Below, in pieces: positions 34,431 to 36,124 of a stretch of DNA of 64,000 nucleotides. The first letter of the stretch is position 1. Every line of letters begins with the position of its first letter. A program made the position numbers and the translations under genes. The stretch lies in the NCBI GenBank assembly GCA_963765145.1, contig CAVXVG010000018.1:96001-160000 (forward strand). The letters are read 5' to 3'. This DNA is from Parachlamydiales bacterium (GTDB lineage: Bacteria > Chlamydiota > Chlamydiia > Chlamydiales > JAJFMK01). The notes below the pieces were generated by a model. The model searched no databases and had not been told where the DNA came from. It worked only from the letters and a program-made list of their open reading frames with translations.

Positions 34431-34822
34431 GGAGTGGGCGCTGGAACCTCAAGCACTCGAAAGGCCTCATTTGAATAAAACGGCGACATTGGCCTACGCA
34501 GTAGAGCCGAATGTCGCCGTTTTTTCAACTGAGGCGCATTCGAGCGTTGAGGGCGCCCAATTCAATTTCTACCTTCGGCTGTAAAAAATTCTGCGCCGTT
34601 TTTAACGGGATTTATACGCAGGGCCTGCAAACGCCCATCTTGCGATAAACGGCATCAGGCATTTGGTAAAACCCTTTTCAAGCCGTTTTCGCAACCTGGC
34701 CATTTTCGGCTCCTGCTAAAATCCCACATTAATTATTAAATTACGCGAAGCGTTTGGAGTGCGAAACTCCTGTTTCGCTTTCACTTTCACTGATAAGTCA
34801 AAGCTAAACAGGAGTTTCGCAC

Positions 34823-35101
34823 GGCCTTGTTGCATAATTGCACGTGATTCCCCGTTTCTCCTGCAGCCCTTCAGGCTGCCATATAAAGTTTCATCCTAAA
34901 CCCGGGGCGTTGCCCACGGGCTGTTGCAATTTTGGCCTTTCAGGCCAAGGGAAAAGCCTGTATTGCTAGGATTTTCCGGCTGAAAGCCGGATAGTTGCAA
35001 CAGCCCGCGGGCAACGCCCCGGGTTAAGTTGGAGAATAAAATTGGCAGCCTGTAAGGCTGCAGGAGTAGAGAAACGTTGCGAACAATTATGCAACAACGC
35101 C
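34823..35101. mobile_element. 279-bp MITE (family C) with IS903-like (IS5 family) ends
   Basis: 18-bp TIRs GGCCTTGTTGCATAATTG / CAATTATGCAACAACGCC (1 mismatch), flanked by a perfect 9-bp direct repeat GTTTCGCAC (34814-34822 and 35102-35110). No transposase inside. Confidence 0.88.
34858..35066. repeat. REP/REPIN-like palindrome (family D) inside MITE C
   Basis: Outer IR CTCCTGCAGCCCTTCAGGCTGCCA / TGGCAGCCTGTAAGGCTGCAGGAG. Inner 31-bp IR AACCCGGGGCGTTGCCCACGGGCTGTTGCAA (34899-34929 vs 34995-35025, 1 mismatch). Small GGC-TGAAA-GCC type hairpins. Confidence 0.8.
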
Positions 35102-35245
35102 GTTTCGCACTCCAAACGCTTCGCGTAAGGGGATTTTTTTAGGGCTCGAAAATGCCCCCTAATTGGGCGACCTCAGGCACTCGAAAGCGCCTCAGTTTTT
35201 ATTCAAATGAGGCCTTTCGAGTGCTTGAGGTCCCAGCGCCCACTC

Positions 35246-36124
35246 CTAATAGTTCAAATTAGTGTCTGCAATGAAGTTCGAGTTGTTGGCGATTGGGAGA
35301 TAGGCTTTTTCGCAGTGGCCACAACCGAAGGTGTAGTGAATGCCTATGCAAATGTTGGAGGCATAATTTTTTGACATATTGATGCTGTTGTCATGGTGGG
35401 CGGCCATGTACATGCCACGCCCTTCAACTGAAAGACAATCTGTCAATGGCGCTTGAAAACTTGCCCCAATGATAAATTCACCAGGTCGTGAAAACATCAA
35501 CCCTTTTCCATAAGGAAATCCAACCCAGATGTCGGTTTGGGCACAGTTTGAAAAAAGATGTCGCCAAAAAAGATTGATCTGATCGACTGCACGAAAAGCG
35601 ACAGGAAAGTCTATCGTTTTTTTGTGCGAGGTGTTGGTGTGCACCGTTCCCCAAGCTCCAATTTCATCTGAACAACAAATTTGATAGGCAGCTAGATAGC
35701 GGAATTGAGAAAAGTTGGTGTTTAAGGCAAACGCCCCGAATTGACTGTTAAACATCCAGTCATAGGCCACAGCTAAGTTAAAGCCCGATTCACAATAAGT
35801 TTTTCTAGAGAGGGCTGCTGTTAAAAACCCTTGTTGTTGTAGTCTAGAAAGACTTCCCTCTAAAGCAGATCCTCGGCCGGGCCAATCATAGAGACCATAA
35901 CTGCCGCCCACTTGGACATCAAAGCCATATTCGGAGAGGCACGGCAGAGGCATCCCAATATTCAAGCTTGCAAGGGCGCCGGTGTTACCTTCCCAGCTTC
36001 CATCTGGTAGGCTTCTAAAAGTGTCGTAGGCAACAGCCGTATCGATGGCAAAGGGAAAGCAGGTTGCAGAAAAAGCTGTTCCGTAAATGAGGGAAAGAAG
36101 GAGGACGTTTAATAGAATATTCAT
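35246..36124 (-). CDS. Secreted, probable outer-membrane beta-barrel protein
   Basis: Signal peptide, alternating beta pattern, 'QQGFLTAALSRK', 'VAYDWM', scattered Cys. Confidence 0.7.
   Translation of the reverse strand: MNILLNVLLLSLIYGTAFSATCFPFAIDTAVAYDTFRSLPDGSWEGNTGALASLNIGMPLPCLSEYGFDVQVGGSYGLYDWPGRGSALEGSLSRLQQQGFLTAALSRKTYCESGFNLAVAYDWMFNSQFGAFALNTNFSQFRYLAAYQICCSDEIGAWGTVHTNTSHKKTIDFPVAFRAVDQINLFWRHLFSNCAQTDIWVGFPYGKGLMFSRPGEFIIGASFQAPLTDCLSVEGRGMYMAAHHDNSINMSKNYASNICIGIHYTFGCGHCEKAYLPIANNSNFIADTNLNY

Follow-up and report, generated by a model that had tools for sequence, protein, structure and literature searches.

Between two convergent genes of a chlamydial genome, four repeat elements, A, B, C, and D, lie one inside another and occupy the whole gap between the stop codons (34431-35246). 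How was such a nest assembled? An earlier note on this stretch of 64,000 nucleotides (the window) read the locus as four insertions, in the order A, B, C, and D, by families that land in each other's hairpins. The evidence described here points to a different account. A miniature element consisting of C and D was, with good probability, placed by an IS903-group transposase at a fixed site of B, and B lies within A. The nested locus would then likely reflect three events, not four.

Architecture of the nested locus

The genome (G000) comprises 2.68 Mb in 37 contigs, is 84.8% complete, and contains an OmcB-type match below the cut-off (E 3.6e-6). The nest is bordered at its 5' side by a GMC oxidoreductase gene on the forward strand (32760-34430) and faces a convergent gene for a DUF6666 protein on the reverse strand (35246-36124). 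The left arm of A, a long imperfect inverted-repeat element, begins immediately past the GMC stop codon (34431-34740). The inner motif of this arm ends at 34725, and the arm shows 90% identity to an intact A at 4345-4947, whose centre is empty. B extends from 34741 to 35128 and is a REPIN-like doublet of a RAYT-associated repeat, with the cognate RAYT in another genome (G159). Its left part (34741-34822) runs through the 9-bp target inclusive. It is followed by the 279-bp non-autonomous element C+D (34823-35101), which has IS903-group ends. The two 18-bp terminal inverted repeats of C (34823-34840, forward strand; 35084-35101, reverse strand) are complementary at 17 of 18 positions. The element is flanked by a perfect 9-bp duplication, GTTTCGCAC, with the left copy at 34814-34822 on the forward strand and the right copy at 35102-35110; the latter and the right outer arm of B make up 35102-35128. 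D (34858-35066), inside C, is a back-to-back doublet of the arms that border an IS200-like Y1 gene (G000:C21:218943-219392). The truncated right arm of A, delimited by alignment to the intact A (35129-35246), shares one base with the DUF6666 stop codon.

On re-examination, the nested layout, its coordinates, the terminal repeats of C, and the perfect duplication reported in the earlier note all hold. The uninterrupted A and the free copies of B (41687-41783 and near 21507 and 55379) are also present in the window. That A wraps B is correct in part: the nesting is real, but the A of the nest is not simply an intact copy split by an insert. At 118 nt, compared with ~295 nt in the intact A, its right arm has been shortened by two deletions of ~130 and ~46 nt. 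Four transposase-family searches of the genome gave no match inside the window, in agreement with the earlier statement that it contains no transposase. One strand of the 816-nt nest has a folding energy of -298 kcal/mol (z = -25.6), and none of 20 shuffles folded as well. Rfam models gave nothing near the gathering score at the locus, and the miRNA matches there were judged hairpin noise. Among public sequencing runs, none spans the nested locus; a contig from run X7 equals 34482-34697 with 0 differences, and a contig from run X1, perhaps the run of the source sample itself, corresponds to 35171-35321 with 1 difference.

C and D as one mobile unit

D had been suspected of being a separate, later insertion. 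This is contradicted by the other copies of the unit, which indicate that C and D moved together. BLAST detected six copies of the whole 279-bp C+D in the genome at 99.6-100% identity. They differ by 0, 0, 0, 1, 1, and 1 bases and are located in different copies and variants of B. Because such near-identical copies lie in different B variants, D was not a separate arrival at the nested locus. Five of the six have their own perfect 9-bp duplication, comprising four distinct 9-mers that match the host B variant, and the sixth has flanks that are inverted rather than direct. Besides these copies, C without D and D without C both exist. At G000:C19:6562-6907 and C25:5982-6327, identical C+D units have identical flanks, which represents either a segmental duplication or assembly redundancy.

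Most D doublets are also associated with C. Back-to-back D doublets of 180 nt or more number 39, a count that leaves out three shorter free ones; of the 39, 29 adjoin a C end, seven lie in arrays inside C, and three are free. A tree built from these short doublets is as compatible with one capture of D as with several. With 36 of 39 inside IS903-type ends, the copy number of D doublets is likely to result from DDE transposition. The back-to-back order of D inside C is the reverse of the arm order around the Y1 gene and matches one register of the tandem arrays.

Could B, with C and D inside, have been copied whole by the RAYT of B or by gene conversion, so that C inserted once or a few times? 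Composites can evidently be copied here, as A(B) copies share spacers, and in two pairs of copies the flanks are shared as well (C19/C25). However, identical C+D units are found in different B variants and at both symmetric sites, with matching duplications of their own. In addition, the C elements at the B site fall into 34 distinct types at 97% identity, and in two families the site is also occupied by the full IS. We therefore regard whole-unit copying as extremely improbable.

C has the features of a MITE. It is 279 bp long, non-coding, and multi-copy, its ends are 1-2 bases from those of the resident IS, and it is flanked by a 9-bp duplication. Its interior is not deletion-derived from the parent IS, as sequence matches to the IS interior are confined to the three IS copies, and the interiors of C-type elements are repeat families. 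The miniature of G159 likewise resembles the IS of that genome at the ends only.

The target site of C in the stem of B

Genome-wide, C-type ends with up to 2 mismatches were found 137 times, compared with 0.5 expected by shuffling. Among the 136 with a flank, 101 adjoin a 9-mer that differs from the B site at no more than 2 positions (background 0.27%), and 35 have no B-like flank. Pairing of the ends gave 54 C-type elements, 27 of which have a direct repeat. One of these 27, at a contig edge, was dropped, and the reconstructable target was the B site in 26/26, with 13 in each orientation. Three of the 26 use a 3-mismatch end admitted solely through its B-like flank, and excluding them leaves 23/23. 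Nine C-type elements have inverted, not direct, flanks, an outcome expected if the two sites of B had recombined or if an adjacent deletion had occurred between them. The imperfect duplications of ISRm22 have been accounted for by recombination or adjacent deletion in a survey of such elements (PMC1525189). In total, 61 of the 205 B loci carry a C end.

The target is thus a fixed, near-palindromic position in the stem of B, GGA-N9-TCC. Outside B, this pattern has 52 intergenic copies, all of which are unused. The pattern GGAG-N7-CTCC occurs 168 times in B and 28 times outside B, of which 4 are intergenic. Since it is so scarce in intergenic DNA outside B, double-strand sequence suffices for targeting and reading of a hairpin is not required. 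The general rule of the earlier note, that these elements land in each other's hairpins, is not supported by C, which uses a fixed stem site; a 15-bp sequence palindrome would explain its targeting with no hairpin involved.

A broader form of this rule would be that each family senses extruded hairpins, with four separate insertions at the locus. This would account for B at the symmetry centre of A at many loci, with at least four B variants and different spacers, for the central position of cargo in C, and for a second IS whose miniatures, like the IS itself, also insert into the hairpin repeats F and B. Yet C+D moved as a unit, and C bypasses the D, F, J, E, and A hairpins and uses one stem position of B, for which, as noted, the sequence alone is enough. 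Hairpin seeking as a general mechanism is unlikely.

Another possibility is that insertion is wide and copies survive only in dispensable intergenic DNA, with no true targeting. Gaps between convergent genes make up 24% of intergenic bases but contain 38-63% of the copies of each repeat family, and the ends of A and B are often within 10-20 nt of stop codons. This concentration in convergent gaps indicates that selection shapes which copies survive. As an explanation of the nest, such filtering is nevertheless very unlikely, and for the insertion of C into B it is largely refuted: the repeat families make up 8% of intergenic bases, yet in all 26 cases C is at the same base position of a single family, the intergenic GGA-N9-TCC sites outside B are left empty, and related ISs leave varied flanks.

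A resident IS903-group element

IS903-group elements are ~1.1 kb long and have short terminal inverted repeats. Three copies of a 1114-1115-bp IS with C-like ends, which encodes a 316-aa transposase, were found in G000, and the ends of C+D at the nest match the copy at G000:C2:1-1115. The transposase scores 296 bits with NF033579 (IS5 family; cut-off 140), 106 bits with PF13737 (DDE_Tnp_1_5), and 84 bits with PF01609 (DDE_Tnp_1). All three copies adjoin a B site. The copy on contig C29 has both flanks visible, with a perfect 9-bp duplication, and the other two have one flank visible. The copies differ at nine columns; one frame is intact, and two have a one-base frameshift. The size, the short terminal repeats, and the 9-bp duplication (perfect at G000:C29 and G159:C62) fit the IS903 group, and IS903 itself produces a 9-bp target duplication (PMC2577343). 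Both kinds of enzyme genes predicted in the earlier note, an IS5/IS903-group transposase and Y1 transposases, have thus been located in the genome.

C is classed as a miniature that derives from an IS5-family element of the IS903 group. The shared ends and the shared target suggest that an IS903-group transposase moves C-type elements in trans. C ends depart from those of the resident IS by one or two bases; many of the C copies may therefore have been moved by an older relative. The congener G001 retains a remnant of an IS end bearing the C-type base. Among solved structures, none related to the IS transposase was found.

The target in other chlamydial genomes

A junction search of 401 genomes of the phylum gave matches in G000, G001, and G159, plus G368 by chance; the junction matches in G368 and G414 were judged chance or unrelated. 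G159 belongs to a different family from G000 and is 99% complete. It contains an intact orthologue of the IS, with 72% identity and a duplication at the same B site (G159:C62), as well as two 156-bp miniatures at the B site. A search with the ends only gave nine matches in G159, of which seven are true ends, all at B, and two were judged chance. The same search in G001 gave ten matches; eight were inspected, and seven of these adjoin B (one degenerate) and one lies elsewhere. G430 yielded seven junctions, a count that is circular because the search pattern required B. A 13-mer of B has more than 150 copies in three genomes (270, 235, and 151), all of which show the C/B junction, and it is absent from 142 of 151 genomes of the order.

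Distant IS903-group elements served as controls. Their ends have non-B flanks in G002 (7 inspected of 35) and in G368 (7/7), and six 9-bp duplications of such elements at other loci included none that is B-like. G002 is a congener without detectable B; its 35 ends belong to an element with a near-same terminal repeat and unrelated flanks, and many are located at contig ends. The transposases of G000 and G159 cluster with 27 database proteins (FastTree support 1.0; one of the trees is a quick version) and share 11 diagnostic residues with them. The genomic context of this 29-protein clade comes from the G000 and G159 members. Taken together, the sequence comparison indicates that the B-site target is a property of a transposase clade, with orthologous elements in other chlamydial genomes keeping to it.

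Repeat families B and D and their Y1 genes

B is an extragenic inverted doublet with 205 loci in G000, and 262 of its 276 outer arms lie in called intergenic space. In G159, B arms are found, inverted, on both sides of a RAYT gene at G159:C130 (176 aa; NF047646, 99 bits, cut-off 80), orthologues of which are present in G430 and G001. This arrangement suggests that B is copied by a RAYT. In G000, at 84.8% completeness, the RAYT of B was not found by Pfam or tblastn. The B arms in G159 and G430 are mostly back-to-back, the reverse of G000; B has two doublet orders, as does D. The foot tetranucleotide GTAG is absent from the B and D arms at the locus, and the sole GTAG there is inside an A hairpin.

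The arms of D border a Y1 transposase gene in G000, and D-like arms are seen at most of 30 related loci. Relatives of the D-flanked Y1 protein occur in 49 of 400 genomes of the phylum. An assignment of the D-flanked gene as a RAYT was rejected: the G001 protein scores 26 bits with the RAYT model (cut-off 80) and 77 bits with the IS200 model (cut-off 55), and the G000 protein matches the IS200 model only. D thus consists of long inverted repeats around a Y1 gene and is also a dispersed family. It appears to work like a REPIN yet fits the TIRtrons of Di Nocera better.

Other Y1 genes and repeats are also present. Besides an IS200/IS605 TnpA at L001, G000 has five Y1 genes (L002-L006), which between them are flanked by four different repeat families. 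The one at L005, flanked by F, is a RAYT above the cut-off. The arms of family E (L003:1314-1359 and 1916-1961) have a weak match to Rfam Acido-Lenti-1 (28.5 bits; gathering score 37).

Cargo inside C-type ends

The paired C-type elements include 52 that lack the IS903 transposase. In 44 of these, HMMs called a repeat family, compared with 12-21% of random intergenic windows. The cargo is D in 25, F in 10, J in 4, E or E+F in 3, and B in 2. Seven of the remaining eight fold strongly and match repeats outside C. These elements are not all independent, since the 49 shorter than 500 bp collapse to 34 types at 97% identity. One type of C end encloses J, F, or B as cargo in different elements, a pattern suggesting that repeats entered an existing C body more than once. 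The two C-type elements of G159 have no repeat cargo, so cargo is not needed for C-type elements; that of G430 has cargo.

In G001, C ends at a B site enclose not only D arms but also an intact Y1 gene of 150 aa (G001:C1:106702-107772; L050:1181-2251). This cassette has a duplication matching at 8/9 positions, and its Y1 protein is 67% identical to that of G000. A gene-less twin with the same C ends and D arms is located at G001:C1:52393-52743. The Y1 genes of G000 and G001 have unrelated neighbourhoods, and a search of G000 with the genes flanking the cassette for an empty orthologous site gave no match. A Y1 gene inside IS903-type ends was seen at one of 30 loci, that of G001, and at none of the other 29, whose flanks were limited to 1.5 kb.

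Element A and the order of events

A is found at ~25 loci in G000, many with deletions. Its ends are often 0-9 nt from a stop codon, with no clear duplication. Minimal forms of ~33 bp exist (G000:C20:37630-37662). Among 61 relatives, A-like DNA was detected only in G000 and the congener G001. In the contig collection, the exact pattern of the A core occurs at four places of one other genome, and these places coincide with G001.

B starts within 45 nt of the inner motif of A at 7 of 15 A loci by HMM and at 10 by eye, compared with a null of 1.0-1.5%. Enrichment of nesting, as proposed in the earlier note, is therefore supported for B in A as well as for C in B. At the centre of A, at least four B variants are present, with different spacers. 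The loci at C27:178.2k and C29:276.6k have the same truncated A and the same spacers, and the latter has C+D added. Since they share A(B) and only the second has C+D, C came after A(B). The shared spacers indicate that A(B) may be copied whole.

The order A, then B, then C is accordingly supported in its second step. A before B is not established, as in a relative represented in runs X2, X5, and X8 the A arm is missing and B abuts the stop codon of the same DUF6666 gene.

No autonomous partner and no target rule for A were found in the searches. An IS630 origin of A gained no support: G000 has two IS630-type matches, with no A end called nearby, and A shows no consistent TA duplication. At L076 of G001, the left arm of A is cut immediately past the inner motif by a putative IS66-type element.

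Proposed mechanism and related systems

The nest can be explained as follows. A RAYT would copy B, and B would sit at the centre of an older long palindrome, A. C, already carrying D, would have inserted at one fixed 9-bp site in the B stem, likely by the resident IS903-group transposase. This DDE transposase may read the near-palindromic double-stranded GGA-N9-TCC in the context of B and move C-type elements in trans. Cargo repeats would have entered a pre-existing C body several times, either by Y1-mediated insertion or by capture of a repeat-gene-repeat unit with subsequent gene loss. For the IS, B would be an abundant target free of genes, and carriage inside C would amplify the cargo repeats.

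Targeting of REP sequences by ISs is established (PMC1525189, PMC2817692). Tobes and Pareja (2006, PMC1525189) describe IS1397, ISKpn1, and ISPsy8 (IS3), IS621, ISPpu9/10, ISPa11, and ISRm19 (IS110), and ISRm22 (IS4). Like their type-1 REP-targeting ISs, the copies described here break the repeat at one position and leave a target duplication (3/3 IS copies and 26/26 targets in G000; 7/7 true ends in G159). Unlike them, the element belongs to the IS903 group of the IS5 family, which is listed there, with IS1106, as a loose 'type 2' REP association only, and most of the insertions are miniatures carrying other REP families. IS903 has the target WTTYA-N9-TRAAW (PMC2577343). Our element resembles it in its ends, the 9-bp duplication, the near-palindromic target flanks, and the Pfam domains, but its target is GGA-N9-TCC in one repeat family, near-exclusively, and its transposase falls in the 29-protein clade with 11 diagnostic residues.

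B resembles the REPINs and RAYTs described by Bertels and Rainey (PMC3116915, bioRxiv 10.1101/2021.07.10.451892) and Nunvar (PMC2817692) in being an inverted doublet whose arms flank a RAYT in G159. It differs in lacking the GTAG tag and in that the RAYT was not found in G000. In these accounts RAYTs do not move; in contrast, the G001 Y1 gene and its repeats lie inside IS ends. D, with arms around a single-copy IS200-like Y1 gene and with doublets and arrays, resembles TIRtrons/TIRYTs (Di Nocera 2013, PMC3733652) and IS200 group 3, which is RAYT-like (PMC5581495), but unlike in those accounts, most of its doublets lie inside IS903-type ends (36/39). Movement of passenger DNA in trans by transposase-free ends, as the sequences suggest here, is also known for the integron mobilisation unit IMU (Delihas 2011, PMC3184786). 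There, two whole MITEs surround resistance genes, whereas here single 17-bp ends surround a selfish repeat or its transposase gene.

In the literature covered, mostly open literature without supplements or ISfinder, no IS903-group REP specialist, REP-loaded miniatures, or chlamydial case was found. The IS may already bear a name, and nested small repeats may already be in print for cyanobacteria. The nest is mostly explained by known kinds of elements, and their combination is new.

With this element, homing into palindromic repeats extends to ISs of the IS903 group, and the target is conserved across chlamydial families. The conserved target and the short list of candidate specificity residues make target choice in the IS903 group testable. 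A DDE transposase that is nearly site-specific, and whose multi-copy target is free of genes, could be useful as an integration tool. REP-like repeats, once with a transposase gene, ride in IS ends, which bears on REPIN-type spread. For repeat annotation, the apparent layers of a nest need not equal separate insertions.

A bolder reading, which we put forward tentatively as a minority possibility, is that an IS903-group clade is specialised on one REPIN family and that its bare ends shuttle units of repeats plus Y1 gene and their gene-less derivatives. If so, supposedly immobile RAYT/TIRYT systems would have a route to change place or host, and REP-like families would be amplified by a DDE transposase rather than by their own enzyme. 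The repeats would form a layered community, in which two unrelated ISs parasitise REP hairpins and get REP-loaded in turn.

Further nests in the genome

Several other nests are seen in G000. C-type elements with B as cargo are located at G000:C30:53233-53651, C21:240417, and C29:265509, and one of the inner B copies holds C+D. At G000:C27:207177-208893 (L010), the second IS lies inside F, inside C, inside B. It encodes a 381-aa DDE transposase, for which the nearest model is IS1182, below the cut-off. The ends of this IS are found again at fixed positions in F and in the inner hairpin of B, and its miniatures contain E as well as other repeats. Five-layer nests (B, C, F, a miniature of the second IS, and E) and an A centred on J, F, and E instead of B are found at G000:C26:177601-178113, C29:267394-268102, and C29:131605-132722.
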